The notes: generated by a model from the sequence alone, not told the origin. DNA of 64,000 nt from Bacteroidaceae bacterium (GCA_045640065.1 JAZUEH010000119.1:19075-83074), one strand, 5' to 3'. Counted from the first letter of the stretch, positions 6,671 through 35,720 are shown. Numbers and translations are program-made.

Positions 6671-7813
6671 TTACTTGGTGACGATAACAGCCACACGGTT
6701 CAGTTCCGGAGTTTCGAACGGATTCTCTTCACTTCCCTTCCAATCCTTAGTGATACGTGACTCGTCAACACCAGCCTCGATAAGTCTCTTGGCAACAGCG
6801 TTTGCACGCTTTTCTGACAGGGTCATGTTCCACTTCGGAGTACCGGTCCAATGATCGGCATAGCCTGTGATTCCGACTACTGCTTCAGGATACTTGTTAA
6901 GAACCTCAAGAACGTGGTCAATCTTTTCATCTTCAGTCTTGCGGATATTCCAGCGGTCAAGCTTGAAAAGAACGTTTTCGGTGACAGCACGATCCTTAGC
7001 ACGCTGTTCTGCAGCGGCCTTCTCCTGAGCCTCACGAGCTGCCTGAGCTGCGCGTGCAGCCTGCTCACGCTCCTGATCTGCTCTCTGGCGGGCAGCTTCT
7101 TCCTGAGCCTTCTTCTCTGCTTCCAGACGGGCAGCCTCCTTTGCAGCGGCAGCGGCGGCAGCAGCGGCAGCAGCATCGGCAGCAGCCTGCTTCTTGGCTG
7201 AACCGAGAGAGAACTTGACACCGAGAAGTGCATTCCAGTGATTGTCGAGATTATCACCTACCTTTGAATTGAAGTGGTCAGATACCATGTTGTCCAGAAC
7301 CTCAAGACCGATTGTAACATAAGGTGCAACACGGAAATCGATGCCGGCGCCTGCACGGCCTGCAAGGCTGATGGCAGGATCTTCCCAATAATAATTATCT
7401 TCAGGAAGCATGGCAAGTGAAGCACCGTTATTGAAACGGTAGTTACCGCCTATACCTGCAAAGAGATAAGGATTGATGGCACGTGACTTGTAACCTCCGA
7501 TAAGATTGCAAAGGTCAAATGTGGCATCCAGAGCAAGCTGGCCGAAGTTGAACTTGTAGCTTTCGAACTTGAGATTCGAATAACCCATGCCTTCCCAACC
7601 GTTGGCATTGAGGCGAAGACCGAAAGTTGGAGTAGCCTGATAACCCAGCGAAAGGGATGCTGCCGGTGAAATGAGGTTTGTCCATTCTGTTTCACCTACA
7701 GTGTGACCTACGCCACCCTGAAGCTGCATGTACCAGTCAGTGTAGAACTTGTCCTGGGCGAACATGCCTGATGTCATCATAACCAATGACAGAGCTGCAA
7801 AAATCTTTTTCAT
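6671..7813 (-). CDS. OmpA-family outer membrane protein (N-terminal beta-barrel, long Ala/Glu/Gln/Arg-rich helical linker, C-terminal OmpA peptidoglycan-binding domain)
   Basis: 380 aa with signal peptide MKKIFAALSLVMMTSGMFAQ. Beta-strand-like alternating pattern in the first ~200 aa. C-terminal GYADHWTGTPKWNMTLSEKRANAV...NRVAV matches an OmpA_C-like domain. Confidence 0.85.
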   Translation of the reverse strand: MKKIFAALSLVMMTSGMFAQDKFYTDWYMQLQGGVGHTVGETEWTNLISPAASLSLGYQATPTFGLRLNANGWEGMGYSNLKFESYKFNFGQLALDATFDLCNLIGGYKSRAINPYLFAGIGGNYRFNNGASLAMLPEDNYYWEDPAISLAGRAGAGIDFRVAPYVTIGLEVLDNMVSDHFNSKVGDNLDNHWNALLGVKFSLGSAKKQAAADAAAAAAAAAAAKEAARLEAEKKAQEEAARQRADQEREQAARAAQAAREAQEKAAAEQRAKDRAVTENVLFKLDRWNIRKTEDEKIDHVLEVLNKYPEAVVGITGYADHWTGTPKWNMTLSEKRANAVAKRLIEAGVDESRITKDWKGSEENPFETPELNRVAVIVTK

Positions 7814-9643: not shown

Positions 9644-12600
9644 TCAGTCGTCATACCAGTTCACATAACTGTTCTGGCTGCTGCGTTTCTTGACCTTGAG
9701 AAGGTCAGAAAGCATGCTGGACGTGGCCCGGACGGTGAAATTATATGAAATATACGGTTTCAGAACCATGCTGCACGACATGTTGAAGCAATGCAGATCA
9801 CGGGAGAAGTTCATCGTTGTCATGGTAAAATCGTGATAGACGAAATCCCATCCGGACGAGAAATTGAAATTCCACTTGTTGGTGAGTTTCAGGTTACCGG
9901 ACATGTTGAGACTATGGGTGAATCCCCAGGGATAACGCATCCGTTCAGGATTGATCTCGGCTTTGGTATCTTCCTTCATGCTGATGCCGTATGAAAGTGA
10001 CAACGACCATGGAAGAGAATACTCCACGTATCCGTCATCATCGGTTTTCGCCTGAGCACTGCCTGACGAAGAACCAGCTGATCGCGACCTGGAAGAGGCG
10101 GCCGGACGACGATCCTGGCTATCGGTCAATTCGGAATCCCCATCCGATTCATCATCATCGGACTCCGTACCGGAGAACATGGATGTCAGCTTGTGCCATC
10201 TCTCACTCAGATCGTTGAGAGTATTGTTGTTGAATGTATAGGAGAAATTCTGGCTCATGCCCTGGAAACGGCCGAACCTTCCGTATGACCATTCGGTACG
10301 GTCACCGACCACGACTTTCCCCTGATCATTGAACTCATAGGCGTATGTGGCAAAGACAGCGTTCAGATTAAACGTGTAGCTCTTGCCGAACTTGAGACGT
10401 ATTCTGGTGCTGAGGTTACTCCAAGGCTTCGTTTTCGCCGCCATATTATACGATATTGAAGCACCCAGCTGGTCAATCAGCGAAACGACCTTAGTCTGTA
10501 CGGAATCGCCCGATGGATGTAGCTTCATCTCAAGATTATTGTCCACACTGAGTGAAACGCTTCCCGACTTGCCCTTTCCGGGGACGCCATACATTCCGCT
10601 CTGGTAGGGCGAATATTCCACAGTACGGACTTCACCGTTCCTGTCGGTATAGACGTATGTGTCATAGTATCCGAAACGGGCTGCTCCGAAATCGGGCGTC
10701 ATGCTGTAGCTGAGGGTCGGGGTAAGTACATGCCTGACAGCCACAAGACGATCCGAGAACAGTTTTCTCCAAAGGTCCGTAGGCTGATACATTCCATACA
10801 GCTTCGTATTGGCACTGACGCTCATGTTGTAGTCATATACACGGTTGAAGCCATAGACCGTATCACGCACCGCCATACCTAGCATATCATCCCAATGCTG
10901 GTTTACCTTATACGAATACCACCGTGACGAATAGTTGAATGAAGGAGTCACGTTGATGTTGTTCAGTATCTGGAATGTCGCACTGACAGGAATGGAGTGC
11001 TTCATGCCGTTTTTCCAATCCGTAAGAAGATTCTTATGCATGAGCTCGTCCTCCTTGCAGGTAATGCTGTTGGAAAGGGAACCCGAATATGTGAACGATA
11101 TCTTCTCGTACCACTTTTCCGAACCGGCAGCTTTTTTTTTCTTGAAAGGATATATGCGTTGTAATGATAGGTTCAACGAAGGAAGCGACACCGACAAAGT
11201 GGAATCACGCATATTCTGCGAGAGGTTCATGGATGACGAGAGCGAAAGGCCGATGTCCGGGAAACTGCGAGAATAGCTGACGCTTGAAGTCCTGGTGCTC
11301 TGAGACCTGAGTGACGGGTTGTACAGACTTGTCAGATTTGACGTTTCATAACTCTGGGTTGCATAGTTGACGCTGGCAGAGAAGTTCTGCAAAGGATTGG
11401 CCTTTGAATCCTGGCTGTGTGTCCAACGGACTTTGAAGTCTTTGGATACGGAAAAGTCCGGAAGTCCCTTATCGCCCAGTTTTGTTGTAAGCGAACTCAC
11501 ATAGACATTGCCCGTAAACTTGTACCGTTTCTTGTAGCGCGTCTCGGCAGATACGCCCCACGAACCTTTCGTGAAGACTTCACCAAGAACCTTAAGATCG
11601 AAAAAATCCGAGAGAGCGAAATAATAGCCGCCATCCTTGAGATAGAAGCCGCGTTCCATTTCATCGCCGTAGCTAGGTACGATGATACCCGATGCGTAAT
11701 CGCTTTCCGTGAAGGGGAAGAATCCGAAAGGCAGGAACAGAGGAAGCGGAACGCCCATGACCTCAAGATATGCAGGACCGAACACGACGTCACGTCCCGG
11801 CCTGACCTTGGCACGTGTAATGCGGATGTTGAAATGCGGATCATCCTGATTGTCACAGGTAGTGTATATGCCGTCCTCTATGAAATATTCGCCATCCGGG
11901 CCTTTCTTTGCCTGACTGCTGGTCATGTATCCTTCACCCTGTTGGGTAATGATTTCATTGATGTACCCCTTTTCTGACTTGAAATTGTAGCTAAGATGGT
12001 TGGAATTGTATGGAGTATTCCCGTCATTGAAAACCGGTGCTCCAATCCACTCCCCTGTGCTGTCCTGTACTCCATCCGCATAGACCAGACTACTGTCGAT
12101 CTGCATTTTGATGACCGCAGCTGTCAGTTCTATATTCTGATAATTGACTTTACCTTCTCCGAAAAGCGATGCATATCCTCCTCTTATCCAGGTCATGGAA
12201 TCCTTGGACTCGTAGATCACAGGGGCATCAAGAGCATCCTTCACACGGATACTGTCCAGAACCAGACTGTCAGAAACAATGCTGTCAAAAGCCAGACTGT
12301 CCAACGCCAGGCTGTCCAACGCCAGGCTGTCATATTCCAGACTGTCAAGTGCCAGACTGTCAAGTGCCAGACTGTCAAATGTCAGGCTATCGGAAGTTGG
12401 CAATTCAAGCAGTGTACTGTCCTTAGACAACGATGCGGTACTGTCCGGAAGGGCATGAACTTCAGGCTGGACAGGCTGTGCTACACCCGATACCGCAGAA
12501 TCGGCCATTTCCGGCTCCAGAGGAATGATATCGGATTGCATGACACTGTCTGAAGGCAAACCGGCAGTATCACTGCCCTCAACCCTTCTTCCGACAGAAC

Positions 12601-12685
12601 AGTCTGTGAGAAGGAGAGCCAAAGCCAGCAGGACAGGAATATCGATTGCCGGCTGAATCCTTTTGAGCCAATTTGCCAATTTCAT
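9644..12685 (-). CDS. LptD/OstA-like outer-membrane LPS-assembly protein homologue with N-terminal pentapeptide-repeat region
   Basis: 1013 aa. Size and layout (signal/lipobox-like LLTDCS, OstA-like region VIYESKDSMTW...VNYQNIELTAAVIKM, long beta-rich C-terminus ending in an aromatic residue) fit the Bacteroidales putative LptD family. Assignment is from memory of the family, not a search. Confidence 0.6.
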   Translation of the reverse strand: MKLANWLKRIQPAIDIPVLLALALLLTDCSVGRRVEGSDTAGLPSDSVMQSDIIPLEPEMADSAVSGVAQPVQPEVHALPDSTASLSKDSTLLELPTSDSLTFDSLALDSLALDSLEYDSLALDSLALDSLAFDSIVSDSLVLDSIRVKDALDAPVIYESKDSMTWIRGGYASLFGEGKVNYQNIELTAAVIKMQIDSSLVYADGVQDSTGEWIGAPVFNDGNTPYNSNHLSYNFKSEKGYINEIITQQGEGYMTSSQAKKGPDGEYFIEDGIYTTCDNQDDPHFNIRITRAKVRPGRDVVFGPAYLEVMGVPLPLFLPFGFFPFTESDYASGIIVPSYGDEMERGFYLKDGGYYFALSDFFDLKVLGEVFTKGSWGVSAETRYKKRYKFTGNVYVSSLTTKLGDKGLPDFSVSKDFKVRWTHSQDSKANPLQNFSASVNYATQSYETSNLTSLYNPSLRSQSTRTSSVSYSRSFPDIGLSLSSSMNLSQNMRDSTLSVSLPSLNLSLQRIYPFKKKKAAGSEKWYEKISFTYSGSLSNSITCKEDELMHKNLLTDWKNGMKHSIPVSATFQILNNINVTPSFNYSSRWYSYKVNQHWDDMLGMAVRDTVYGFNRVYDYNMSVSANTKLYGMYQPTDLWRKLFSDRLVAVRHVLTPTLSYSMTPDFGAARFGYYDTYVYTDRNGEVRTVEYSPYQSGMYGVPGKGKSGSVSLSVDNNLEMKLHPSGDSVQTKVVSLIDQLGASISYNMAAKTKPWSNLSTRIRLKFGKSYTFNLNAVFATYAYEFNDQGKVVVGDRTEWSYGRFGRFQGMSQNFSYTFNNNTLNDLSERWHKLTSMFSGTESDDDESDGDSELTDSQDRRPAASSRSRSAGSSSGSAQAKTDDDGYVEYSLPWSLSLSYGISMKEDTKAEINPERMRYPWGFTHSLNMSGNLKLTNKWNFNFSSGWDFVYHDFTMTTMNFSRDLHCFNMSCSMVLKPYISYNFTVRATSSMLSDLLKVKKRSSQNSYVNWYDD
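12250..12395 (-). repeat. In-frame 15-nt tandem repeat (~10 units) encoding (D-S-L/I-x-x)n
   Basis: + strand units ccagactgtcaagtg / ccaggctgtccaacg and similar. They translate to DSLTFDSLALDSLALDSLEYDSLALDSLALDSLAFDSIVSDSLVLDS. Confidence 0.9.
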
Positions 12686-16451: not shown

Positions 16452-16528
16452 ATCCGCATGAATTAGTATGATTTTGTAATTGTTTCTTGAGTGCGAATGT
16501 ACCTTAAAATCAAGCAATACGCAAAAGA

Positions 16529-16560
16529 TTTGCCCAATTTTAGGGAAATGACTACTTTTA
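16529..16560 (+). promoter_or_regulatory. Candidate promoter of the cassette operon (-33 TTTG / -7 TACTTTTA)
   Basis: TTTG at 16529-16532, a 20-nt spacer, then TACTTTTA at 16553-16560 (7/8 match to TAnnTTTG). It lies ~30 nt upstream of the A1 ATG. Confidence 0.3.
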
Positions 16561-16589
16561 CGGAGTAATTGATTCTTTATAAAATAGGT

Positions 16590-18521
16590 ATGTCAACAAA
16601 TATGAAGAAAGCCCTGCCTGTTACGGCGGCAGCGATTGCCTTGTGGGCTGTTCTGGCATTCGTGGAAAAGGCATTTCTCTTCAAGAACGGCGACCTGTCC
16701 CTGTTTCTTTTTGACTGGGCTTCATTGAATGAATCATTCATGATACCCGGCGGCTTCCTGGGTTGGGCAGGATCGTTCTTCACCCAGTTCCTGCTGGTCC
16801 CATGGTTTGGGGCACTGATATGGGTTCTCATGCTGACAGCGGCAGGCATTCTGACCGCACGGACATATGACATTCCTTTCCGGCTGACCCCATTGGCAGC
16901 CATCCCGGTTGCAATTCTGATTATCGGCAACATGTCACTGGGATACGGCATTTACATACTGAAGATGCAGGACTATTTCTTTGCACCCACTCTGGGATAT
17001 CTTCTCATGCTTCTTATCATCAACGTGACATGGAACACGCAGAACACCTGGAAGAGAATGATCTGGCTGGCGGCATCGGCCTTTGCCGGATATCTTCTTG
17101 CAGGGGTGTTTGCTTTGGCTGGAGTCACCGCCGCGGGGCTTGGCTGCATATGTCAGGCAGGAAATGATAATGGAGGCACAAAGTTTTGGAAACGCATTAC
17201 GATGCCTGTATTCTCCATTATCCTGACAATAGCCGCCCCTCTGCTCATGTACGGCCTTTTCACAAGATACCGCTTGATTGACAGCTGGTTCATGGGGCTT
17301 CCGGCCACATCCGAGCAGTCATGGGAATGGCCGGTCCGGCTGCCTTCACTGATTCTGATTGGATTTGCGGTTGTCATGGCACTGTTCCGCCATCGGCCTG
17401 AAAACGCAGGAAAGACGGCAGCAATACCCATTGGCATAGCAGCCGTCACTTTGGGAGCGGTTCTGTTCTTCTGGTTCAAGGATGCGAATTTCAGAACTGA
17501 GCTGAAAATGTCCGAAGCAGCCGACAGAAGCGACTGGAAACGGGTGACTGACATATACGTCAAAGCATCCACGCGCCATTCCGGAAGGGAAGGGAAAACA
17601 TTCGAGAAAATGAAGAAAGAACTTGCCGGACTTACCGATGACTATTCTTATGACATGACAGTCAACCGGTTCAAGGATAAGTTTTTCGAACCCACCAGGC
17701 TGATGGTCCTGCTGCGCGACATGGCACTGCTCAAGCAGGGGCAGGCACTCGACATGGCATTCACCATGCGCAACGGCGGAAAGAATCAGGCCTCGAAATC
17801 CCAGATTCCGATGACTATTCAGGCAGGCCCACAGCTTTACCTTAATATGGGGCTTGTCAACATGGCCTACCGATGGTGTCTTGAAGATCATGTCGAGCAT
17901 GGCTGGAATTACAGTACTCTCCGATTCATGGCCATGCATGCCACAATAATGAATGAACCTGAATTCGCAGACAAGTTCTACGACAAGCTGGACAAGACCC
18001 TGTTCTTCCACAAATGGAGCCGCACGAACAGACCGCTTTCCAGGGATTCCGTCCTCATGGCCAAGGCCATGCCATACTCGGAAATCATACCGTACATGAC
18101 TTTCGGCGACCGCATGTCCACTGACGCCACAATGGCCGAATCATATATTGTCCACCACTTCACCAATGACAGGGACAGTCTGGCCAGCCCTGCATTTGAC
18201 CGTGCAGCACTACTGTTCGCCATGAACTCCAAGGACAGCAAACTGTTCTGGAAAACGCTGTTCGAATACCTCAGCACGTCAGACGACGAAAAGCTTCCAA
18301 AGCATGTTCAGGAAGCCGCCCTTCTTTTCAGCAGTCTTGAAAATGAGAATCTGGGCATTCCGTTTGACAAGAATGTCAGAGACAGTTTCACAGCATTCCA
18401 GAAATATTTCAGCAACTCCGCATATCGCAGCGTGGAAGAAGCGGCATATCCGTTCCTGACAAGGTTCGGGAACACATATTTCTATTACTATTACTTTGTA
18501 CGCAATCTGCAAACATTCTGA
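16590..18521 (+). CDS. Cassette protein A1: uncharacterised polytopic membrane protein (~9-10 TM segments plus ~340-aa soluble helical C-terminal domain)
   Basis: Start set at MSTNMKKALPV by alignment with the paralogues (A2 MTATMKKTLPV, A3 MKTNIRKTFPA). Conserved blocks LSLFLFDW, IPGGFLGWAGSFFTQF, FFAPTLGYL, FFEPTRLM, YRWCLE, FMAMHATIMNEPEFA, FGNTYFYYYY. Possibly the DUF6057-type family (recollection only). Confidence 0.85.
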   Translation: MSTNMKKALPVTAAAIALWAVLAFVEKAFLFKNGDLSLFLFDWASLNESFMIPGGFLGWAGSFFTQFLLVPWFGALIWVLMLTAAGILTARTYDIPFRLTPLAAIPVAILIIGNMSLGYGIYILKMQDYFFAPTLGYLLMLLIINVTWNTQNTWKRMIWLAASAFAGYLLAGVFALAGVTAAGLGCICQAGNDNGGTKFWKRITMPVFSIILTIAAPLLMYGLFTRYRLIDSWFMGLPATSEQSWEWPVRLPSLILIGFAVVMALFRHRPENAGKTAAIPIGIAAVTLGAVLFFWFKDANFRTELKMSEAADRSDWKRVTDIYVKASTRHSGREGKTFEKMKKELAGLTDDYSYDMTVNRFKDKFFEPTRLMVLLRDMALLKQGQALDMAFTMRNGGKNQASKSQIPMTIQAGPQLYLNMGLVNMAYRWCLEDHVEHGWNYSTLRFMAMHATIMNEPEFADKFYDKLDKTLFFHKWSRTNRPLSRDSVLMAKAMPYSEIIPYMTFGDRMSTDATMAESYIVHHFTNDRDSLASPAFDRAALLFAMNSKDSKLFWKTLFEYLSTSDDEKLPKHVQEAALLFSSLENENLGIPFDKNVRDSFTAFQKYFSNSAYRSVEEAAYPFLTRFGNTYFYYYYFVRNLQTF

Positions 18522-18531
18522 ATGTTCCATT

Positions 18532-20100
18532 ATGAAAAGACATAGCCCCCTTTTTTTTGTCATCCTCCTGCTTTCAGCCTGCTCCGGCAAACCGGGCAGC
18601 AATGTTACCGTATCAGCCGAAAGCCCTTCGGTATTTCCGGACTGCCGGGGCATAACGATTCCCTGCAACATTGCTCCTGTAAACTTCATGATTGACAATG
18701 AAGCAGATGCATACTATACCATTCTGACCGGCGGTGATTTTTCAATTGGCATAAAGGGCAAAAAGGTTTCAATTGACGAGAAGGACTGGTACAGACTGTT
18801 ATCGGCTCCAAACGGAGAAATCAGTGTCACAGTACATACGAAAAACAATGGCAGATGGACGGCAATGAGTCCTTTCAGCATGTCCATTAGCCGCGACTCG
18901 ATTGACAGTTACATTTCATATCGCGTCATTCCGCTTGCCGGTGAAGGATATGAGACTCTGGATCTGGTTCAACGGAACATCACGAACTTTGATGAAAACA
19001 TCTACTTCTCGAACACCATGCTGCAGCACCAGCAGGACGGGACATGCATCAATTGTCACCATTTCTCCAACTACAGGACTGACAACATGCAGTTCCACGT
19101 GCGCCAGTTCAAGGGAGGTACAGTAATGGTCATTGACGGGAAACTGAGAAAAGTCAATCTCAAGACCAATGGGACGGTATCGGCCGGAGTCTATCCTGCA
19201 TGGCATCCCACACACGATTTCATAGCTTATTCCAACAACAAGACCCATCAGTCGATCCATGCCATGAGCCATGACAAGATCGAGGTTCTTGATGACGAGA
19301 ACGATATTGTCCTGTACGACATTAATGAAAACACCGTCAGCCCAATAGAGAACGATTCAAGCGAGATGGAATGTTATCCGGCATGGTCTGCCGATGGACG
19401 GACACTGTATTACGTATCCAATCACTACGAAGCACCCTTCGGGCCGGAACGGAAAGCCCAGATTTTCGAGGATAGATTCAAGCTTCATTTCAATCTTTAT
19501 GCCAAGCCTTTTGACCCGGAAACACGTACATGGGGACCACATTATCTGGTTTACGATGCTGCAGCAGCAGACAGCAGCATGACATGGCCACGCGTTTCCC
19601 CTGACGGCCGATACATGATGACATGCATCAGCACTCACGGCATTTTCCCTTTGGACCAGATTGCATCGGACCTGTTCCTGTTCGATTTCAAGACCGGCAC
19701 TGCACGTAAGATTGACGAGATAAGCAGTCCTTATGCCGAAAGTTTCCATGTATGGTCAAGTAACAGCAAATGGGTCATGTTCAGCACCAGACGCGAAGAT
19801 GGAGTCTTTACCCGTCTGTATTTCAGTCACGTTGACGAGAACGGACATTTCTCCAAACCGTTTGCGCTGCCGCAGAAGAATCCCGAGTTCAACCGTTCTT
19901 TCCTATACGCCTTCAATATTGCGGAATTCATGGTTGAACCCATCAGGATCAGTCCCCATGATTTTGCCGATTTCATAGGCAGCAATGAAGCCGTACCTGC
20001 CGTATTTGAATCAAAGCGCGAGATTGACGCCCAAGGAGAACTGGTGATTTCCAGTTACCATCCGGACGCAACCAGCGGAGCATCCGTACTGGAACATTGA
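18532..20100 (+). CDS. Cassette protein B1: lipoprotein with single CXXCH motif and PD40/TolB-like beta-propeller repeats
   Basis: MKRHSPLFFVILLLSACSG lipobox, GTCINCHHF, YPAWSADGRTLYYVS, WPRVSPDGRYMMTCIS, WSSNSKWVMFSTRREDG. The start lies 10 nt after the A1 stop. Confidence 0.85.
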   Translation: MKRHSPLFFVILLLSACSGKPGSNVTVSAESPSVFPDCRGITIPCNIAPVNFMIDNEADAYYTILTGGDFSIGIKGKKVSIDEKDWYRLLSAPNGEISVTVHTKNNGRWTAMSPFSMSISRDSIDSYISYRVIPLAGEGYETLDLVQRNITNFDENIYFSNTMLQHQQDGTCINCHHFSNYRTDNMQFHVRQFKGGTVMVIDGKLRKVNLKTNGTVSAGVYPAWHPTHDFIAYSNNKTHQSIHAMSHDKIEVLDDENDIVLYDINENTVSPIENDSSEMECYPAWSADGRTLYYVSNHYEAPFGPERKAQIFEDRFKLHFNLYAKPFDPETRTWGPHYLVYDAAAADSSMTWPRVSPDGRYMMTCISTHGIFPLDQIASDLFLFDFKTGTARKIDEISSPYAESFHVWSSNSKWVMFSTRREDGVFTRLYFSHVDENGHFSKPFALPQKNPEFNRSFLYAFNIAEFMVEPIRISPHDFADFIGSNEAVPAVFESKREIDAQGELVISSYHPDATSGASVLEH

Positions 20101-20120
20101 GGAATCAAAACAGAGCAGTC

Positions 20121-22058
20121 ATGACAGCAACTATGAAAAAAACGCTACCGGTCTTGATTCCGGCACTTGTTCTCTGGTTCATACTGGCTTTCCCGTACGA
20201 GTCATTCCTATTCAAGACCGGTAATCTGTCACTATTCCTATTTGACTGGTCATTTTTCATGGATTCTCTGTCCATACCAGGCGGTTTTCTAGGGTGGGCC
20301 GGATCATTCTTCACCCAGTTCATGCTCATTCCGTGGTTTGGAGCCTTGCTATGGGTCGTTTTGCTCACTGCGGCAGGTATCCTCACTGCACGGATATATG
20401 ACATGCCGCGATCACTCATACCGGTAGCAGCCATACCGGTGGCACTTCTCATAATCGGGAACATGTCTGTCGGATACGGTATATATGTCATGAGAAGCCA
20501 GGATCATTTCTTCGCTCCTACGCTTGGTTATCTTCTCATGCTTGCCATTATGTACTCCACATGGCATGCCGGCAATGTATGGAAGAAAATGGCGGTATTA
20601 ACGGTATCGGCATTTTCCGGATATTGGCTTGCAGGTATTTTCGCATTGGCCGGAATTGCTGCCGCCGGCATAGGAAGCGTTTTCGAACCAGCCGGATACA
20701 GTCCGGCCAGCAGCAGATCGGGACGTTTCATTCCGATGTTGCTGGCAACCGTCCTATGTATTGCCGTTCCCTATGCACTATATGGCCTTTTTACCAGCTA
20801 TAATCTTGCTGACAGCTGGTCAATGGGATTGCCGTCAGTGTATTCAAGATCATGGAATAGTTCTTTGCGGGCTCCCTACTGGTGTCTGTTCGTACTTGCT
20901 GTCGTATTGTCGGCTATCAGACCTTTATTTGCAAAGGTTTCCCGGACAGACCGGTCTTTGAAGATCCTGTCCATCGCTCTGACCCTTGCGGCAATTGTCC
21001 CTACATACCTGTTCTGGTATAAGGACAGCAACTTCAGAACAGAGTTGGAAATGTCAGCGGCGACAGAAAAACAGGACTGGCAGAAAGCTGTCGAGATTTA
21101 CAGGCAGGCATCAACCGGCTGCGTGGATAAGGAAAAGAAGACATACTCAAAACTGAAGGACAGACTTTCCCGTGCCGGAAACGAAAAGTCATACGAAAGG
21201 ACTCTTGACAGATATGAAGACCGGTTCTTCGAGCCAACCAGACTGATGATTCTTTACCGGGATCTGGCGTTGCTCAAACTGGACAGGGCGCTTGATTCGT
21301 CATTTGCCTTGCGTGATGGGGATAAACCGCAGAAATCCCCGGTAAACATATCGCTGACATTTCAGGCGGGACCGGAAATCTACTTCAATTACGGACTGGT
21401 CAACATGGCATACAGATGGTGTCTTGAAAACCAGTCCCAGTTCGGATGGAGCTTCCATACTTTGAAATACATGGCCATGCATGCCGTCATCATGAACGAG
21501 CCTGAATTTGCCGACAAGTTCCTGGACAAGCTTGAAAGAACAATATTCTTCAAATCATGGAGCAGACAGCAGAGACAGCTTTCCACTGACATGTCCTCCA
21601 TGTCACAGACAATGCCATATCGGGAAGTAATTCCATATATGGATTTTGAAGATTACCTTTCAATGGACGGCAGCAATATCGAGACCTTCCTTATGCTTCA
21701 TTTCATAAAAGACCGCGGCACAGTAAAGAGCCCAGAATTCTTCAGGGCGGCCATACTGTGGGCCATGAGGTCCAAAGATCCCGGTACATTCTGGGATACT
21801 TTCTTTAGATATTACAATTCGCCCAGAGAAGGCAAACTGCCAACGCACGTTCAAGAAGCACTATTGCTTTTCAACAGCATGGAAAGGACTATTGCCGGCA
21901 TCCATTTTGATGGAAACATCCTGGACCGGTTCGAATCATTTCAGGAATACGTCATACAGAATGAAACTACGGGCGGCATCGAACCGTTCCCCGCATGGCT
22001 CAAATTCGGAAATACGTATTTCTACTATTACCTTTTCCAGGACACAGAACCGTTCTGA
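20121..22058 (+). CDS. Cassette protein A2: paralogue of A1
   Basis: Collinear with A1 over its full length and keeps the same conserved blocks. The track ORF starts at TTG 20097, overlapping the B1 stop; ATG 20121 is preferred by paralogue alignment. Confidence 0.85.
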   Translation: MTATMKKTLPVLIPALVLWFILAFPYESFLFKTGNLSLFLFDWSFFMDSLSIPGGFLGWAGSFFTQFMLIPWFGALLWVVLLTAAGILTARIYDMPRSLIPVAAIPVALLIIGNMSVGYGIYVMRSQDHFFAPTLGYLLMLAIMYSTWHAGNVWKKMAVLTVSAFSGYWLAGIFALAGIAAAGIGSVFEPAGYSPASSRSGRFIPMLLATVLCIAVPYALYGLFTSYNLADSWSMGLPSVYSRSWNSSLRAPYWCLFVLAVVLSAIRPLFAKVSRTDRSLKILSIALTLAAIVPTYLFWYKDSNFRTELEMSAATEKQDWQKAVEIYRQASTGCVDKEKKTYSKLKDRLSRAGNEKSYERTLDRYEDRFFEPTRLMILYRDLALLKLDRALDSSFALRDGDKPQKSPVNISLTFQAGPEIYFNYGLVNMAYRWCLENQSQFGWSFHTLKYMAMHAVIMNEPEFADKFLDKLERTIFFKSWSRQQRQLSTDMSSMSQTMPYREVIPYMDFEDYLSMDGSNIETFLMLHFIKDRGTVKSPEFFRAAILWAMRSKDPGTFWDTFFRYYNSPREGKLPTHVQEALLLFNSMERTIAGIHFDGNILDRFESFQEYVIQNETTGGIEPFPAWLKFGNTYFYYYLFQDTEPF

Positions 22059-22067
22059 TTAACTGAT

Positions 22068-23567
22068 ATGAAACGAATCCCCATACTCATACTTGCTTCA
22101 ATGCTGGCCGCCTGTTCCGGCAGACCCGGCAATGATGCCGGAATATCGGACAGCCAACCGCGCATTTTCCCGGACTACCGCGAAGTCATGATTCCGCGCA
22201 ACATTGCTCCCATGAATTTCATAATAGACAATGAAGCCGATGCATACTATACCGTTCTGTCAAACGGAGATGAGGAAGTGAGCATAAAAGGCAGGAAAGT
22301 ATGCATATCGGACAAGAAGTGGAGAAAATTGGTTTCCGGTCCCGAAGACCATATCGACATCAGGATCAATATCAGGAATGACAGGCAATGGACAGGATTG
22401 GAACCGTTCTCCATATCACTCAGCAACGATCTGATAGACCGGTACATTTCTTACCGCAGGCTCCCACTTGTAGGAAGATTCTATCATGTTCTGGATATGG
22501 TTCAGCGCGACATTACCTGTTTTGATGAAAAGACCTATCTTTCCAACACCATGATTCAGAACGAGGACAATGGTACATGCATAAACTGCCATGCCTATTC
22601 ACACTACAGGACAGACAACATGCAGTTCCATGTACGGCAGTATAGAGGAGGGACAATACTGGTCACTGACGGACAGATGAAAAAGATCAACCTTAAGACC
22701 GATTCGACAGTATCGGCAGGTGTATATCCGGCATGGCATCCCACACACGATTTCATTGCCTACTCCAACAACAAGACATTCCAGTCGGTACATGCAATGA
22801 GTCACGACAAGATTGAAGTCCTGGATGAGGAGAACGATATAGTTCTTTATGATATAAGAAACAACACCGTCAGTCCCGTTGAGAACGATTCCTGCGAAAT
22901 GGAATGCTTTCCGACATGGGCAGCCGACGGACGTACGCTGTATTATGTATCGAATCACTACGAAGATCCGTTCGATTCGCAACGAGGCGCCAGACTTTTC
23001 ACCAACGACCGGGAACTGCATTTCAATCTGTACGCCAAGCCTTTCAATCCCGACACACGCACATGGGGACAGCACCGGCTCGTGTATGACGCCGCCTCCC
23101 GTGACAGCAGCATGACATGGCCACGTGTGTCTCCAGACGGACGCTATCTGATGGCCTGCATAAGCACCCACGGAATATTTCCACTGGATCAGATTGCATC
23201 GGACCTGTTTCTGTTCGATTTCCAGACCGGCAACGCCAGGCACATTGACGAACTGAACAGCCAGTTTGCCGAAAGTTACCATTCATGGGCAAGCAGCAGC
23301 AGATGGGTCATGTTCAGTACCAGGCGTGAAGACGGTGTCTTTACCCGTCTATACTTCAGTCACGTTGACGATAACGGCAACTTTTCCAAGCCGTTTGCCC
23401 TTCCGCAGAAAAACCCGGAATTCAACCGGGAGCAGCTTGTCGCATTCAACGTGGCTGAATTCATGACCGAACCTATAAGATTCAGTGCAAAAGAATTTGC
23501 AGACTTCATAGATGATAATGCGGCAATACCTGCATTGTTCGAATCAAAACGTGAAACAGACAACTGA
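22068..23567 (+). CDS. Cassette protein B2: paralogue of B1 (lacks the C-terminal tail present in B1 and B3)
   Basis: MKRIPILILASMLAACSG lipobox, GTCINCHAY, and the same PD40-like blocks. It ends at ...FESKRETDN. Confidence 0.85.
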   Translation: MKRIPILILASMLAACSGRPGNDAGISDSQPRIFPDYREVMIPRNIAPMNFIIDNEADAYYTVLSNGDEEVSIKGRKVCISDKKWRKLVSGPEDHIDIRINIRNDRQWTGLEPFSISLSNDLIDRYISYRRLPLVGRFYHVLDMVQRDITCFDEKTYLSNTMIQNEDNGTCINCHAYSHYRTDNMQFHVRQYRGGTILVTDGQMKKINLKTDSTVSAGVYPAWHPTHDFIAYSNNKTFQSVHAMSHDKIEVLDEENDIVLYDIRNNTVSPVENDSCEMECFPTWAADGRTLYYVSNHYEDPFDSQRGARLFTNDRELHFNLYAKPFNPDTRTWGQHRLVYDAASRDSSMTWPRVSPDGRYLMACISTHGIFPLDQIASDLFLFDFQTGNARHIDELNSQFAESYHSWASSSRWVMFSTRREDGVFTRLYFSHVDDNGNFSKPFALPQKNPEFNREQLVAFNVAEFMTEPIRFSAKEFADFIDDNAAIPALFESKRETDN

Positions 23568-23584
23568 AATCAATAATAAATGGA

Positions 23585-25534
23585 ATGAAAACAAACATAA
23601 GGAAAACGTTTCCCGCAGCATTGGCTGCCGTGGTTCTTTGGGCCATTCTGACATTTACCCGAAAGGCGTTCCTTTTCAAGACATGTGACCTTTCCCTGTT
23701 CCTTTTTGACTGGACATTCCTTTGGGATTCCTTCAAAATTCCCGGAGGTTTCCTGAGTTGGACAGGCTCATTCTTCACACAGTTCCTGTATTTCCCATGG
23801 CTCGGAGCTCTGATTTGGGTCATTCTTCTTTTTTCGGTCGGAATTCTCACTGTACGAATATTCAGACTTCCATCCGACAAGACTGCTTTGGCTGTCATCC
23901 CTGTTGCCCTGCTGATAATTGCCAACATGTCTCTTGGATACGGAATATTCATAATGAGATCTCAGGACTATTTCTTTGCTCCAACGTTAGGATATCTTTT
24001 CATGCTTGCTGTGATGGCAGCCTCATGGCATGCACCGAAGTGCTGGCTGAAATTTGTCATCCTGGCGGTATCGGCTTTTGCAGGTTATATACTTGCAGGA
24101 ATTTTTGCACTTGCAGGTGTAGCGGCAGCCGGTATCGGATTGGCAGCCGGACCTGAAAAAGACGGGCACGACGAGAGTCACACACTTTGGACCAGATTTG
24201 CTTTTCCTGCCCTATCCGCAATCCTGTGTGTGGTAACTCCAATCCTGTTGTACGGTCTATTTACCAGATATCGGTTGACCGACAGTTGGAATATGGGGCT
24301 TCCTTCAGTCTCACATGACGAATGGACAGTATGGGTACGTCTGCCGCTATGGCTGATAATGGGATTTGCCGTTGTCATGGCAATAATGCGCAGCATTATC
24401 AGTCGGTCAGAAGCCCCCCGGAAACGCGTCCATGTCACCAATGCAGTTCTGACAACTGTTGCAATTGGAGCCATAGTCCTGTTCTGGTATAAGGACGAAA
24501 ACTTCAAGACTGAACTGGAAATGTCAATCGCCACAGACCATTGCGAGTGGAAACAGGTTACAGACATTTTCCACAAGGCATCCATGCGTCATATAGACAA
24601 GGAAAAGAAATTGTATGAAAAACGTCAGAAAGAACTGGCCGGTGTCCAGGACAAAGCCACATACGACTTGATTCTGGAAGAATATGATGATTGCTTTTTC
24701 CAGCCGACGCGTCTCATGGTTTTGCTTCGTGACCTGGCACTTATCAGACAAGGTAAGGAATTCGAACAGGCTTTCGCAATGCGGGACGGTGCTAGACAAC
24801 AGAAATCAAGGACCCAGGTTGCAATGGTGATACAGGCCGGACGTCAGCTGTATCTGAATTACGGACTTATCAATCAGGAATACAGGTGGTGTCTTGAAGA
24901 TCAGGTAGAACATGGCTGGTGCTTCGGCACACTTAAATACATGGCAATGCACGCCATAATCATGAATGAGACCGAATTCGCTTCCCGATATCTCGACAAA
25001 CTCGACAAGACACTGTTCTATCGCGGCTGGAGCCGAAGCCAACGTAAGCTTTCAGAAGATTCACTTGCAATGTCACAGGCACTGCCCTATAGTGACATTC
25101 TGCCACTGATGAGTTTCAGCGACCGCATGTCAAATGACCGTGTCAAGATCGAGACATACCTTATGAGTCATTTTGCCAATGACAGGGACTCCATGGCAAC
25201 ACATCAGTTCGACAGTGCTGCACTTTTCTGGGCAATGCGCACTCAGGACATTGACATGTTCTGGAAGGCACTTGCCCAATACATTGAAACTGCACCGGAT
25301 CTCAATCTGCCCAAGAGTGTCCAGGAAGCGGTCATACTCTACAGCAACCTTGAGCAGGAAGACATGGGCATACCCGTGGAAAAGTCTGTCATTGACAGTT
25401 TCTCCTCATTCAGAAATTATTCTCAAAAATCACAATTCAGAAGTGAAAAAGAGGCAATGTTCCCATTATGGCTCAATTTTGGCAACACATTCTACTATTA
25501 CTACTATTTTATTCGCGGTCTCAAGACATTCTGA
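23585..25534 (+). CDS. Cassette protein A3: paralogue of A1 and A2
   Basis: 649 aa and collinear with A1/A2. Blocks: IPGGFLSWTGSFFTQF, FFAPTLGYLFML, FFQPTRLMVLLRD, YRWCLED, YMAMHAIIMNETEFA, FGNTFYYYYY. Confidence 0.85.
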   Translation: MKTNIRKTFPAALAAVVLWAILTFTRKAFLFKTCDLSLFLFDWTFLWDSFKIPGGFLSWTGSFFTQFLYFPWLGALIWVILLFSVGILTVRIFRLPSDKTALAVIPVALLIIANMSLGYGIFIMRSQDYFFAPTLGYLFMLAVMAASWHAPKCWLKFVILAVSAFAGYILAGIFALAGVAAAGIGLAAGPEKDGHDESHTLWTRFAFPALSAILCVVTPILLYGLFTRYRLTDSWNMGLPSVSHDEWTVWVRLPLWLIMGFAVVMAIMRSIISRSEAPRKRVHVTNAVLTTVAIGAIVLFWYKDENFKTELEMSIATDHCEWKQVTDIFHKASMRHIDKEKKLYEKRQKELAGVQDKATYDLILEEYDDCFFQPTRLMVLLRDLALIRQGKEFEQAFAMRDGARQQKSRTQVAMVIQAGRQLYLNYGLINQEYRWCLEDQVEHGWCFGTLKYMAMHAIIMNETEFASRYLDKLDKTLFYRGWSRSQRKLSEDSLAMSQALPYSDILPLMSFSDRMSNDRVKIETYLMSHFANDRDSMATHQFDSAALFWAMRTQDIDMFWKALAQYIETAPDLNLPKSVQEAVILYSNLEQEDMGIPVEKSVIDSFSSFRNYSQKSQFRSEKEAMFPLWLNFGNTFYYYYYFIRGLKTF

Positions 25535-25542
25535 TTCAGATT

Positions 25543-27138
25543 ATGAAAAGGTACACCATATATATTATCACCGCTTTGGTTGCCGCGGCATGTTCAGGCA
25601 AGCCGGGCAACAATGCAGTCAACTCGGATGAAAGTCCCAGAATATTCCCGGACTACAGCAATGTGGTCATTCCCCGCAACATTGCCCCAACCAACTTCAT
25701 GATTGACAATGAGGCTGATGCTTATTTCACCGTTCTCTCAAACGGTAGTGCATCGGTTGAAAAGAAGGGACGCAAGGTCATCATGGGCAAGAATGAATGG
25801 TCAGAGCTTGCAAACGGTCAGAGTAATTCAATTTCTGTTCAGGTCTACACAAAGAAAAATGATCAGTGGACCTCACTGGCTCCATTTACTATGTCATTGA
25901 GCGACGACCCGATAGACAGATACATAACCTACCGTCGTATTCCAGTAGCTGTTGAAGCATACGAGATTCTGGACCTTTGCCAGCGTGACATCACTGACTT
26001 TCATGAAAAAGTGTTCCTGTCCAACACCATGGTTCAGGACAACAGTAACGGCACATGCATAAACTGCCATCACTGCGGCAACTACAGCGCTTCCAAAATG
26101 CAGTTCCATATACGTCAGTTCAAGGGTGGAACGGTTTTGTTCTTTGACAATGAACTGCGCAAAGTCAATATGAAAACCGATTCGACCATGTCAGCCGGCG
26201 TCTATCCGTCCTGGCATCCCACACATGACTACATTGCATATTCAAACAACAAGACCCATCAGTCGGTCCATGCCATGAGTCATGACAAGCTTGAAGTCAT
26301 TGACGAAGAGAATGATATTGTTCTCTACAACATACGCGAAAACGCAGTCAGCCCAATTGAAACTGACTCGAGCGAACTTGAATGCTTCCCTGGATGGTCA
26401 GCCGACGGACGTACCCTATACTATGTTTCGGCACACTACGAAGCACCTTTCGGGCCCCAGCGTAAAAGCCAGATTTTTCTGGATCGGGAGCAGCTGCACT
26501 TCAACCTGTATGCAAAACCTTTTGATCCGGACACCCGCACATGGGGACCGCATTATCTGGTATATGATGCTGTTGCTGCCGACAGCAGCATGACATGGCC
26601 ACGTCTTTCCCCTGACGGCCGCTACATGATGACCTGTATAAGCACCCACGGAATTTTCCCGCTCGACCAGATAGCATCGGACCTGTTTCTGTTCGACTTC
26701 AAGAAGGGTACTGCACGCCGTATTGACGAGATCAACAGCCAGTATGCAGAAAGTTACCACGTGTGGTCGAGCAACAGCAAATGGGTAATGTTCAGTACCC
26801 GTCGCGAAGATGGTGTCCACACCCGTCTATACTTCAGTCATATAGATGAGAATGGCAATTTTTCCAAACCTTTTGCACTTCCGCAGAAGGATCCGGAATT
26901 CAACCGCAGCCATCTATACGCCTTCAACATACCCGAGTTCATGACAGAACCCATCACAATAAGTGCAAAGGAATTTGCCCGTTTCATATTGGAAAACGAT
27001 GCTGTCCCGGCAGCATTCGAATCCAAACGTGAAACGAACGAACAGGGTGAGCTGATAACGACCGACTACCGGATAGACGGACACACAGGTGCATCTGAGA
27101 CGCGCAATAATGATAACGAAGAAATGTACCTACACTGA
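25543..27138 (+). CDS. Cassette protein B3: paralogue of B1 and B2
   Basis: MKRYTIYIITALVAAACSG lipobox, GTCINCHHC, and the PD40-like blocks. The track ORF starts 25 codons upstream, inside A3. Confidence 0.85.
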   Translation: MKRYTIYIITALVAAACSGKPGNNAVNSDESPRIFPDYSNVVIPRNIAPTNFMIDNEADAYFTVLSNGSASVEKKGRKVIMGKNEWSELANGQSNSISVQVYTKKNDQWTSLAPFTMSLSDDPIDRYITYRRIPVAVEAYEILDLCQRDITDFHEKVFLSNTMVQDNSNGTCINCHHCGNYSASKMQFHIRQFKGGTVLFFDNELRKVNMKTDSTMSAGVYPSWHPTHDYIAYSNNKTHQSVHAMSHDKLEVIDEENDIVLYNIRENAVSPIETDSSELECFPGWSADGRTLYYVSAHYEAPFGPQRKSQIFLDREQLHFNLYAKPFDPDTRTWGPHYLVYDAVAADSSMTWPRLSPDGRYMMTCISTHGIFPLDQIASDLFLFDFKKGTARRIDEINSQYAESYHVWSSNSKWVMFSTRREDGVHTRLYFSHIDENGNFSKPFALPQKDPEFNRSHLYAFNIPEFMTEPITISAKEFARFILENDAVPAAFESKRETNEQGELITTDYRIDGHTGASETRNNDNEEMYLH

Positions 27139-28594: not shown

Positions 28595-29995
28595 ATGTCA
28601 ATAGCTGAGCTGAATTCAAAATGGGAGCAGTGTCTCGGGTTCATCCGGGATAATGTGTCGGAAAATGTTTTCGATGCATGGTTCACTGTCATTGTCCCCA
28701 TTTCATTTGAAAACGGTGAGTTGACAATCCAGGTTCCAAGCGGTTTCGTTTATGAATATCTGGAGCAGAACTGCCTTGGTGTCCTTAAGGCTGCTCTCAT
28801 AAAAGTATTTGGCCGTGGCGTCCAACTTTCATATAGTATTGTAACTGACAAGGAAAATGGTCTCCTCAGGAATGAAAGTTCACAAAATCTTACAAATACT
28901 GATATAAGGAAAACCGGATCAGCAGACAATAAAGCTCCAGTACCGTCCGATGCACCTCTTGTTCAGGATCTGAATCCCAATCTTGACAACAAATATCGTT
29001 TTGATAATTTTGTTGAAGGAAGCAGTAACAGGCTTGCAAGAACAGCCGCGGAAACTATTGCTCTCAATCCTGCAGGCACAGCATTCAATCCACTGTTCCT
29101 TTATGGCGCATCGGGAGTAGGCAAGACACATCTTGTAAATGCCATCGGCATGAAGGTACGTGAACTCCATCCTGAACTGAGAGTCCTGTACGTATCTGCA
29201 CATCTTTTCATGGTCCAATATGTGGATTCAGTCAGAAACAACACCATCAATGACTTCATCCATTTCTATCAGACCATAGATGTTCTGATTATAGATGACA
29301 TGCAGGAAATGGCAGGTCAGGCGAAAACCCAAAACACATTCTTCCACATATTCAACCACTTGCATCTCAACCACAAGCAGATAATAATGACAAGTGACCG
29401 TCCGCCAAAAGACATGAAGGATCTGGAAGAAAGGCTTGTGACAAGATTCAAATGGGGTCTTGTTGCAGAATTGGAAAGACCAGACTTTGAGTTGAGGGTG
29501 GACATTCTCAAGGAAAAGACCAGGAGAGAAGGACTTAATTTCCCTCAGGCAGTAATTAATTACATTGCTGAAAATATTACTGATAACGTCAGGGATTTGG
29601 AAGGTGTGATTGTTGCCATAATGGCCCACTCTACCATATACGGAAAGGATATTGACCTTGATTTGGCAAAACACGTGCTTGAAAAATCGCAAAGCTATGA
29701 GCGCAAGCCTGTCACAATCGACAACATTATCAGCAAAGTATGCGATTACTACAATCTTAGCCCGGAGTTGATTCAATCAAAATCACGCAAGCATGAAGTC
29801 GTACAAGCCAGACAGATAAGCATGTTCCTAGCCAACAAGTATCTGGACATGTCAACATCAAAGATCGGAGCACGTATAGGCAAACGCGATCATGCAACCG
29901 TTCTACATGCATTCGGTGCTGTACGCGACCAGATTCAGGTTGACAAGAGTTTCAGAGCCGATATAGAAAACATCGAAAGCAGTCTCCGCTGCTGA
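28595..29995 (+). CDS. dnaA: Chromosomal replication initiator protein DnaA
   Basis: AAA+ Walker A LYGASGVGKTHL, Walker B LIIDDMQ, and a C-terminal DNA-binding block (QARQISMFLANKYLDMSTSKIGARIGKRDHATVLHA). Start set at ATG MSIAELNSKWEQC; the track begins 10 codons upstream at a TTG. Confidence 0.95.
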   Translation: MSIAELNSKWEQCLGFIRDNVSENVFDAWFTVIVPISFENGELTIQVPSGFVYEYLEQNCLGVLKAALIKVFGRGVQLSYSIVTDKENGLLRNESSQNLTNTDIRKTGSADNKAPVPSDAPLVQDLNPNLDNKYRFDNFVEGSSNRLARTAAETIALNPAGTAFNPLFLYGASGVGKTHLVNAIGMKVRELHPELRVLYVSAHLFMVQYVDSVRNNTINDFIHFYQTIDVLIIDDMQEMAGQAKTQNTFFHIFNHLHLNHKQIIMTSDRPPKDMKDLEERLVTRFKWGLVAELERPDFELRVDILKEKTRREGLNFPQAVINYIAENITDNVRDLEGVIVAIMAHSTIYGKDIDLDLAKHVLEKSQSYERKPVTIDNIISKVCDYYNLSPELIQSKSRKHEVVQARQISMFLANKYLDMSTSKIGARIGKRDHATVLHAFGAVRDQIQVDKSFRADIENIESSLRC

Positions 29996-35662: not shown

Positions 35663-35720
35663 TGCAATATGTGGTTCCGTAAAATCACCCAAAGTTAGCC
35701 ATTATTTATTTTATAATGTA

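Follow-up and report, generated by a model that had tools for sequence, protein, structure and literature searches.

The question raised by a 64,000-nucleotide (nt) stretch of DNA from a Bacteroidaceae bacterium (GCA_045640065.1, JAZUEH010000119.1:19075-83074; this whole stretch is called the window below) is what purpose is served by six genes in a row, between positions 16590 and 27138, that encode the same two kinds of protein three times over. One, here named A, is a polytopic inner-membrane protein of the DUF6057 family, and the other, B, is a lipoprotein with a PD40 beta-propeller and a Cys-Ile-Asn-Cys-His (CINCH) motif. Here, A and B are identified as a near-obligate gene pair of constant order, and the tandem array that they form is described, from alignments of related loci, as a strain-level hypervariable island with allele and copy-number turnover between near-identical genomes. 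The pair probably represents an envelope system of gut Bacteroidales that has not been described before. Two aspects are new beyond the original prediction that drew attention to these genes, namely the hypervariability of the array between strains and the linkage of the pair to SusC/SusD genes in cultured gut species. The features of the array, in window coordinates and with lengths in amino acids (aa), are as follows.

16590-18521, + strand: A1, DUF6057 inner-membrane protein, 643 aa (PF19529, E 1.2e-61)
about 16590-17477, + strand: predicted transmembrane (TM) domain of A1, from an AlphaFold2 (AF2) model and positive-inside topology
about 17478-18518, + strand: predicted periplasmic helical-repeat domain of A1, on the same basis
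17481-17510, 21024-21053 and 24494-24523, + strand: juxtamembrane motif D-x-N-F-x-T-E-L-x-M of A1, A2 and A3, respectively
18532-20100, + strand: B1, lipoprotein with a beta-sandwich, CINCH and a PD40 propeller, 522 aa (PD40, E 1e-11)
18571-18582, + strand: lipobox of B1, LSAC
19045-19059, + strand: C-I-N-C-H of B1, aa 172-176
20121-22058, + strand: A2, DUF6057 protein, 645 aa (PF19529, E 4.4e-67)
22068-23567, + strand: B2, propeller lipoprotein, 499 aa (PD40, E 2.9e-10)
22104-22115, + strand: lipobox of B2, LAAC
22578-22592, + strand: C-I-N-C-H of B2, aa 171-175
23585-25534, + strand: A3, DUF6057 protein, 649 aa, an allele deeply divergent from those of close relatives (PF19529, E 2.6e-64)
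25543-27138, + strand: B3, propeller lipoprotein, 531 aa, the conserved last B of the array (PD40, E 1.9e-11)
26056-26070, + strand: C-I-N-C-H of B3, aa 172-176

The window array is a real, old tandem triplication rather than a product of chance. All six open reading frames (ORFs) that had been predicted are present and intact at these positions, in A-B-A-B-A-B order on the + strand, each running from an ATG to one terminal stop, and successive genes are separated by gaps of 10, 20, 9, 17 and 8 nt. The proposed cassette structure was further borne out by a repeat search of the window, which returned three direct copies that recur every 3464-3543 nt at 67-79% identity. As had been claimed, the B copies are more alike than the A copies (68-70% versus 49-56% aa identity; the individual pairs stand at 69, 70 and 68% for B and 53, 56 and 49% for A), and nucleotide identities are 70-73% for B and 63-66% for A. 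An earlier hand count of about 55 differences between B1 and B3 among about 310 aligned C-terminal residues became 53 of 310 on recounting. The sequence motifs that had been listed recur in all three copies, with the correction that A1 reads FMAMHA, not YMAMHA.

Across genomes, the pairing of A with B is near-obligate and its order constant. A scan with A as the query, covering one genome per GTDB species, gave 73 loci of which 70 were evaluable; B lies directly downstream on the same strand in 67 of these and follows after one inserted, unrelated gene in two more (L043 and L045). The reciprocal scan of metagenomes with B as the query gave 75 loci, in which B genes were judged if at least 700 nt of upstream sequence was available, and all 90 evaluable B genes have A just upstream. 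The original prediction had allowed that the adjacency might be incidental if A and B were not syntenic elsewhere; they are, with 69 of 70 A genes and 90 of 90 B genes paired. The 165 complete pairs, from 122 loci, have a median A-to-B gap of 5 nt, and translational coupling of A and B is probable. One pair is present in 83 loci, two in 35 and three in 4, counts that are lower bounds because the flanks are finite. No third gene was found to travel with the pair, the recurrent neighbours being clade-specific housekeeping genes. Two contigs filed as a Methanomethylophilaceae archaeon (L056) and a Paratractidigestivibacter (Actinomycetota) bin (L063) carry Alistipes/Bacteroidaceae-like A and B genes and may be mis-binned.

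Judged by their sequences, the tandem cassettes are ancient paralogues: in 81 of 82 cases a cassette has its nearest relative in a different locus and not beside it, which agrees with the earlier statement that the duplication is not recent. The pair duplicated as a unit; when cassettes were matched between multi-cassette loci, the matches made by A and by B agreed in 85% of cases versus 48% by chance, and the distances of A and B are correlated with r = 0.89, a value inflated by shared ancestry. The closer likeness of the B copies is explained by slower evolution of B throughout the family (mean pairwise distance 0.50, versus 0.66 for A), and gene conversion, considered as another cause of that likeness, was rejected because B is slower across the whole family. 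The ratio of non-synonymous to synonymous substitution rates (dN/dS) of the copies is 0.04-0.17. Furthermore, positions conserved to at least 90% in rumen and hindgut homologues are kept in the window copies at 36 of 36 sites in A and 94-97 of 97 in B, so that the suggestion of selection maintaining every copy is upheld both by dN/dS and by the intact conserved residues.

Turnover of the array can be followed between a metagenome-assembled genome (MAG) from horse faeces (L001) and an ENA metagenome contig (L153), which appear conspecific, with six flanking genes 98.4-99.7% identical at the nucleotide level and synonymous divergence (dS) of 0.00-0.06. L001 carries a single cassette, L153 three. 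Their last B genes are 99.4% identical, while the A genes just upstream share 68% aa and 70% nt identity with a dS of 1.9; along the alignment, identity is about 100% to around the A start codon, about 65% beyond it and about 100% again over the final ~45 nt of A. The window organism is more distant from both (flank dS about 0.5, flanking proteins 92-99% identical). Its B3 sits at the flank baseline, with 94-95% identity to the last B of L001 and L153 and a dS of 0.49-0.51, and its A3 is more diverged than that baseline, with 69% identity to the A of L001, 76% to the third A of L153 and a dS of 1.4-2.1. Window cassettes 1 and 2 match L153 cassettes 2 and 1, i.e. in swapped order (window 16590-23567, L153 4508-11569), and at 71-76% identity in A and 81-87% in B these cassettes are far more diverged than the genome.

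The pattern extends beyond these three genomes. Variability was measured in 21 locus pairs whose flanks had a median identity of at least 97%, by counting 200-nt segments with less than 80% identity, with no identity filter applied to the whole alignments. Diverged segments made up 18 of 675 in the flanks (2.7%), 92 of 327 in A (28%) and 92 of 266 in B (35%), with six separate groups of loci contributing. Replacements of A only, of B only and of parts of genes were all seen. It looks as though old alleles are exchanged by recombination, and not as though rapid positive selection were at work, since purifying selection acts on each allele and dS has reached saturation.

Regarding the A protein, the family assignment offered tentatively in the original prediction was correct: PF19529 matches A1, A2 and A3 end to end (residues ~5-9 to 636-642, E 1e-61 to 4e-67) with 209.7, 227.7 and 218.6 bits, respectively, against a gathering score of 29.8 bits. 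A profile search of 1.84 billion representative proteins found 2,700 clusters of A, at 50% identity, with E<=1e-3 and 344 with E<=1e-30. No extra Pfam domains or fusions were found in unusually long DUF6057 proteins, no second recurrent Pfam family in 53 A members at E<=10, and no meaningful match in NCBIfam, while a PDB sequence/profile search gave chance matches to G-protein-coupled receptors only. The AF2 model of A, built on a 53-sequence alignment, has a predicted local distance difference test score (pLDDT) of 87.7 and a predicted TM-score (pTM) of 0.89. It is read as comprising nine TM helices, two to three short helices within the first long, periplasmic loop, and an all-helical domain from about residue 297. 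The density of Lys and Arg across 98 A homologues is ~0.22 per residue in the N-terminus and short loops but ~0.07 in the long ones; this positive-inside distribution, together with hydrophobicity and the helices of the AF2 model, fits an N-in/C-out protein with a periplasmic helical-repeat domain of about 345 aa. Foldseek searches with the whole A model found no match at E<0.001 in PDB or in BFVD, and the 50 best PDB matches listed are only weak TPR/PPR-like helical repeats, which fit the C-terminal domain.

The juxtamembrane motif of A is kept in most rumen and hindgut members. Because the genome scan for A used the pattern DxNF[RHK][TA]ELxM, its conservation was judged on the loci derived from B and on distant homologues; among 73 A proteins found via B, the Asp is present in 69, the Asn in 67 and the Glu in all 73. 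Together with Y119, D-x-N-F-x-T-E is well kept in rumen/hindgut A, including the loci found via B. Neither is universal, however, and the distant Bacteroides/Parabacteroides branch does not retain the motif in its entirety; the motif Glu and Met may persist in some distant A members, in alignments that are uncertain at this identity. The A proteins of cultured species share only 16-19% identity with window A, and the residues kept in all twelve jointly aligned A proteins are L38, F39, Q66, L110, G421, A460, L467, F553, E575 and A576. From the same comparisons, the A proteins of B. fragilis and P. massiliensis appear to be without the TM4-TM7 block and to have about five TM helices. The TM4-TM9 region of A is poorly conserved (22-29% identity). 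A conserved Asp in the first loop had been suggested earlier and does not hold up, as position 42 is Asp in only 57 of 98 homologues and Thr in 27; position 35 is Glu or Asp in 83 of 98, and neither position is invariant in the joint alignment with distant A proteins. A role for A as a haem lyase or haem handler was considered and rejected, there being no conserved His in its TM domain.

B had been described as a signal peptidase II (SpII) lipoprotein that combines a conserved CXXCH with a PD40 propeller, and each element of this description was found. A lipobox is present in 158 of 165 B proteins (AAAC in B3), PD40 matches were obtained for all three window copies, and C-[IVLM]-N-C-H occurs in 90 of 92 B homologues and also in the B proteins of P. 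distasonis and B. fragilis. The 158 lipobox proteins carry 0-1 acidic residues at +2 to +6, which amounts to no Bacteroidota surface-export signal, and a lipoprotein signal of this kind means that B should face the periplasm. In the AF2 model of B1 (pLDDT 84.7, pTM 0.87), an N-terminal beta-sandwich (residues ~25-122) is followed by six strand groups, read as a six-bladed propeller by DSSP strand count. CxNCH starts the first of four consecutive strands by DSSP and is read as lying on the innermost strand of propeller blade 2, and other conserved His, Arg and Glu residues fall on other strands that are likewise read as inner ones. Across 93 sequences, 97 positions of B are conserved to at least 90%, including C172, N174, C175, H176, H189, H225 and H243. 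B has the sequence features of a c-type cytochrome, i.e. CXXCH in a Sec-exported protein; in 2.15 Mb of flanking DNA, phmmer gave no match to E. coli CcmC, CcmF or NrfE, a low-power test. Foldseek against PDB gave generic propellers with TM-scores of 0.26-0.37, mainly those of the S9 family (acylaminoacyl-peptidase, prolyl-oligopeptidase), ACO/RPE65 and thiocyanate dehydrogenase, and searches of NCBIfam, PDB sequences and profiles, and Pfam at permissive settings returned nothing beyond PD40. A C-terminal tail of ~25-35 aa is present on B1 (20020-20100) and B3 (27040-27138) and missing from B2; the same tail is found on the 529-532-aa B proteins of the closest clade, and the ~494-aa B proteins of other clades are without it.

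The surroundings of the pair were compared between the window clade and cultured hosts. On either side of the window array lie the following.

16452-16589: intergenic region shared with a divergent GH2 beta-galactosidase gene (from sequence), likely the array promoter region and the left border of the variable segment
27144-28235, + strand: Amidase_3 (N-acetylmuramoyl-L-alanine amidase) gene, by Pfam match

The amidase gene starts 5 nt past the end of B3 and is probably co-transcribed with the array; it is found downstream in 30 loci, of which those listed all belong to the close clade L001-L030. Cultured-host loci were obtained by tblastn of B against PLSDB, with matches in P. distasonis, P. 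massiliensis and B. fragilis. The matched records are labelled plasmids, are non-mobilizable, measure 45-388 kb and carry housekeeping genes, and they are taken to be pieces of chromosomes, i.e. with no true plasmid carriage. In B. fragilis Q1F2 the genes run extracytoplasmic function (ECF) sigma factor, FecR, SusC, SusD, DUF6057, PD40 and GH3, and P. massiliensis has a locus orthologous to this sigma-FecR-SusC-SusD-A-B-GH3 arrangement. P. distasonis has at least four pairs over three loci, with DUF6057 members scoring up to 674 bits: in the first, SusC, SusD, a DUF5128 propeller and an AAA/PD-(D/E)XK ATPase precede DUF6057 and PD40; the second is a tandem two-cassette array; and in the third a TonB-dependent barrel is followed by an A-like ORF and PD40. 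The predicted AAA-ATPase/PD-(D/E)XK nuclease gene of the first (L154, 5645-7213), which stands between SusC-SusD-DUF5128 and DUF6057-PD40, may be a selfish insertion.

From these data it is quite probable that A and B are the parts of a paired, periplasm-facing membrane complex, which would assemble 1:1 at the periplasmic face of the inner membrane. What such a complex does can be proposed only tentatively, and the reading preferred here, plausible but with the odds somewhat against it, is that of a periplasmic nutrient-processing module with B as its cofactor-bearing subunit and A as a membrane-anchored scaffold. B would be the ligand-binding or catalytic subunit, with a cofactor at the Cys/His site; its slow evolution, its ~100 conserved positions and the family-wide CxNCH all point to B as the functional core. 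A would serve as an anchor and not as a conserved catalytic or transport core, given that its TM helix number varies and that TM4-TM9 is poorly conserved. For the cofactor, covalently attached haem c is narrowly favoured as the leading guess, because bacterial cytochrome c maturation recognises little beyond CXXCH in an exported, unfolded protein and because Bacteroides species encode a cytochrome c maturation system for NrfA/NrfH; otherwise, the main alternative is a Cys/His-bound metal centre. The module would act after TonB-dependent import across the outer membrane, binding or transforming the imported compound, a placement suggested by the SusC/SusD or TonB-dependent receptor genes that precede the pair in three cultured species. 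Paralogous cassettes and allele turnover may then reflect diversification of substrate or niche. Nutrient-uptake loci of Bacteroides-type bacteria are typically paralogue-rich and strain-variable, so the variability of the array is compatible with a nutrient role.

Several observations weigh against this reading or parts of it. The neighbours of the array in the window's own clade are housekeeping genes; in the rumen/hindgut loci a SusC/D-like gene occurs in the flanks of 8 of 150 and is adjacent in 0 of 150, and even among the cultured species SusC/SusD adjacency is seen in only 3-4 of 6 loci. The pLDDT of the CxNCH strand is a moderate 67-78 and a strand setting is atypical for haem c sites, both of which call for caution on haem c. 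One of the 70 evaluable A loci, from a Dysgonomonadaceae MAG (L049, 9809-11707), has a full-length DUF6057 gene without an adjacent B and followed by an opposite-strand ORF of 216 aa. The replacements of A alone and of B alone give no evident sign of tight cognate specificity between the partners. Finally, nearly all of the sequences come from MAGs or metagenome contigs, and some mosaics could be products of chimeric assembly; even then, the diversity of alleles that underlies them is real.

Other explanations account for parts of the evidence. In the original prediction, A was thought to resemble a glycosyltransferase of the GT-C type, and in its fuller form this idea makes A a transferase of the GT-C type (or one resembling O-antigen ligases or polymerases) that works at the periplasmic face with a lipid-linked donor, B presenting or processing the acceptor. 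Like the GT-C enzymes ArnT, PglB and PMT and like WaaL, A is polytopic and has a large domain in the periplasm and a helical first periplasmic loop, which in A contains two to three short helices and a mostly acidic position 35 (83/98); moreover, allele replacement between strains resembles the behaviour of wzx, wzy and waaL, and one Prevotella clade has a gene for GDP-mannose dehydratase upstream. Profile and fold comparisons give it no support: no GT-C clan Pfam family was found in 53 A members at E<=10, the hhalign probability was 0.4% against E. coli ArnT and 0.3% against WaaL, and the Foldseek search of the whole model against PDB had 0 matches at E<0.001 and no GT-C structure among the 50 best matches listed. 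The first loop has no invariant acid (D42 is Asp in only 57 of 98), the TM count varies, with the TM4-TM7 block apparently dispensable in the B. fragilis branch, and the pair is not accompanied by genes for sugar activation or for glycosyltransferases, all of which leaves a transferase highly improbable. A quinol-linked periplasmic redox module, with B as a mono-haem c propeller enzyme and A as a cofactor-less protein with a periplasm-side menaquinol site in the logic of NrfD/PsrC, would make sense of the family-wide CxNCH, of the conserved His, Arg and Glu on presumed inner strands and of the polar residues Q66, Y119, D298, N300 and E304 that rumen/hindgut A keeps near the membrane-periplasm boundary in the nine-helix topology. 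When profiles of A and B were compared by hhalign with E. coli ArnT, WaaL, NrfD, NrfE, NrfG, CcmC, CcmF, CcmH and NapC, the probability was at most 2% in every case except that of B with NapC, where the haem region gave a weak, motif-level match at 13.7%; NrfD itself gave 0.1%, and no NrfD Pfam match was obtained. No Fe-S or multi-haem partners accompany the pair, quinols are not usually oxidised by way of a single haem, Y119 and D-x-N are not retained in the Bacteroides/Parabacteroides branch, which also appears to be four TM helices short, and the idea does not account for the large helical domain of A. A redox module of this kind is therefore considered unlikely.

The hypervariability itself invites a different explanation, in which the array is kept by antagonistic co-evolution: phages, bacteriocins or secreted toxins would have the proteins as their target or entry route, or be met by them as a shield, and the divergent tandem copies would be the variants. 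Deep, sharp-edged divergence between contigs with 98.4-99.7% identical flanks and one versus three cassettes, a roughly 10-fold enrichment of diverged segments in cassettes over flanks, and old alleles under purifying selection are together what balancing or frequency-dependent selection is expected to leave. Yet the predictions for both proteins place them in the periplasm or the inner membrane and not at the surface, and B has an enzyme-like set of ~100 conserved positions. A PADLOC search with the six array proteins at E<=0.01 had no match, while the PARIS genes of the window, the positive control, scored strongly; no homologues were found in phage records, and no toxin, recombinase or mobile-element genes were seen among the neighbours. 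Maintenance by antagonism is thus rated as distinctly improbable. The PD40 repeats, the six blades by DSSP count and weak matches to TolB models would also suit a Tol-like envelope or cell-wall module, in which B is a tethered TolB-type propeller and A its TPR-like partner, working with the downstream amidase; the position of the amidase gene 5 nt after B3, its conservation in 30 loci and the presence of LptD nearby can be cited in its favour. B differs from TolB and S9 peptidase-type propellers, which it resembles in PD40 repeats and blade count, by low TM-scores, the absence of a peptidase domain, a lipid anchor, the beta-sandwich and C-x-N-C-H, and with the TIGR02800 TolB model it reaches 21-28 bits, where the cutoff is 343. 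The linked or recurrent neighbours include no tolQRA, pal or cpoB genes, the amidase adjacency is confined to one clade, and a core envelope machine is unlikely to show allele turnover and a copy number of 1-3, all of which makes a Tol-like role very unlikely.

The nutrient-processing reading finds its closest analogy, in logic, in the Xus xenosiderophore system. In XusABC, whose homologues are diversified, a TonB-dependent transporter and an inner-membrane protein work together with a propeller lipoprotein (PMC13142918); XusB, a DUF4374 protein with seven blades, carries an export signal and is exposed at the surface, and the PepSY reductase of the system is XusC (PMC13142918). The A-B pair likewise follows SusC/SusD or TonB-dependent genes in B. 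fragilis, P. massiliensis and P. distasonis, although B has neither a DUF4374 match nor an export signal, A is not a PepSY protein and most A-B loci are without a nearby transporter gene. B also resembles propeller enzymes with haem or metal, such as cytochrome cd1 nitrite reductase, thiocyanate dehydrogenase and the carotenoid oxygenases, in having CXXCH and His residues on presumed inner strands, but its matches are generic (TM-score ~0.3), it has no separate cytochrome domain and its cofactor is putative. As for DUF6057 (PF19529), of which A1-A3 are full-length members, the family is a name without a recorded function, structure or partner, and the descriptions found omit the PD40 partner, the tandem arrays and the strain variability of the pair. 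In the literature searched, no paper mentioned DUF6057, PF19529 or these proteins, and neither protein has a characterised relative in Pfam, NCBIfam or PDB, so the earlier verdict of no characterised function stands. The pair is accordingly rated as lying outside every characterised kind of system, although its function need not be new.

A bolder proposal, which is doubtful at present, is that the pair represents a new class of system in which A holds a haem- or metal-bearing propeller, B, at the inner membrane and in which alleles and copies are kept diverse by balancing or frequency-dependent selection. The diversifying selection might come from different imported substrates, or from use of the complex as a point of attack by phages or toxins. 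If true, a periplasmic rather than a surface system would be a major axis of strain individuality in gut and rumen Bacteroidales, which carry one to three tandem pairs per locus. A membrane protein unmatched in PDB and coupled to a CXXCH propeller lipoprotein points to periplasmic chemistry or transport of a kind not yet known, and the deep, sharply bounded variation within species marks the locus as a candidate for determining how strains differ in niche. Furthermore, cultured and genetically tractable hosts such as B. fragilis and P. distasonis make the function directly testable.

The rest of the window holds several features of separate interest. The dnaA gene (28595-29995) is located ~1.4 kb downstream of the array, which may for this reason be close to the replication origin; cumulative GC skew had no turning point inside the window. 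The PARIS genes used as the positive control are an anti-phage pair on the - strand (41893-43775) that consists of a 354-aa DUF4435 protein (PADLOC AriB, E 5e-61) and an adjoining 273-aa ATPase (AriA, E 6e-57). Upstream of the array, also on the - strand, a 1051-aa protein with collagen-like Gly-X-Y repeats (3084-6239; Pfam Collagen, E 6e-16) is encoded by a gene with tandem repeats of 18, 27, 45 and 72 nt periods at 5590-5901, and this gene is adjoined by one for an OmpA-domain protein (6671-7813). The LptD homologue (9644-12685, - strand; PF19838, E 4e-160) has about 7-8 copies of a 15-nt tandem repeat, encoding an LDSLA-like unit of 5 aa, in the part of its gene for the N-terminus (12251-12385). 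Lastly, an 832-aa ORF on the - strand (33194-35692) looks like a MurF-Alr-type fusion from the domains of its 822-aa counterpart at the end of locus L153, which combines Mur ligase and alanine racemase domains.

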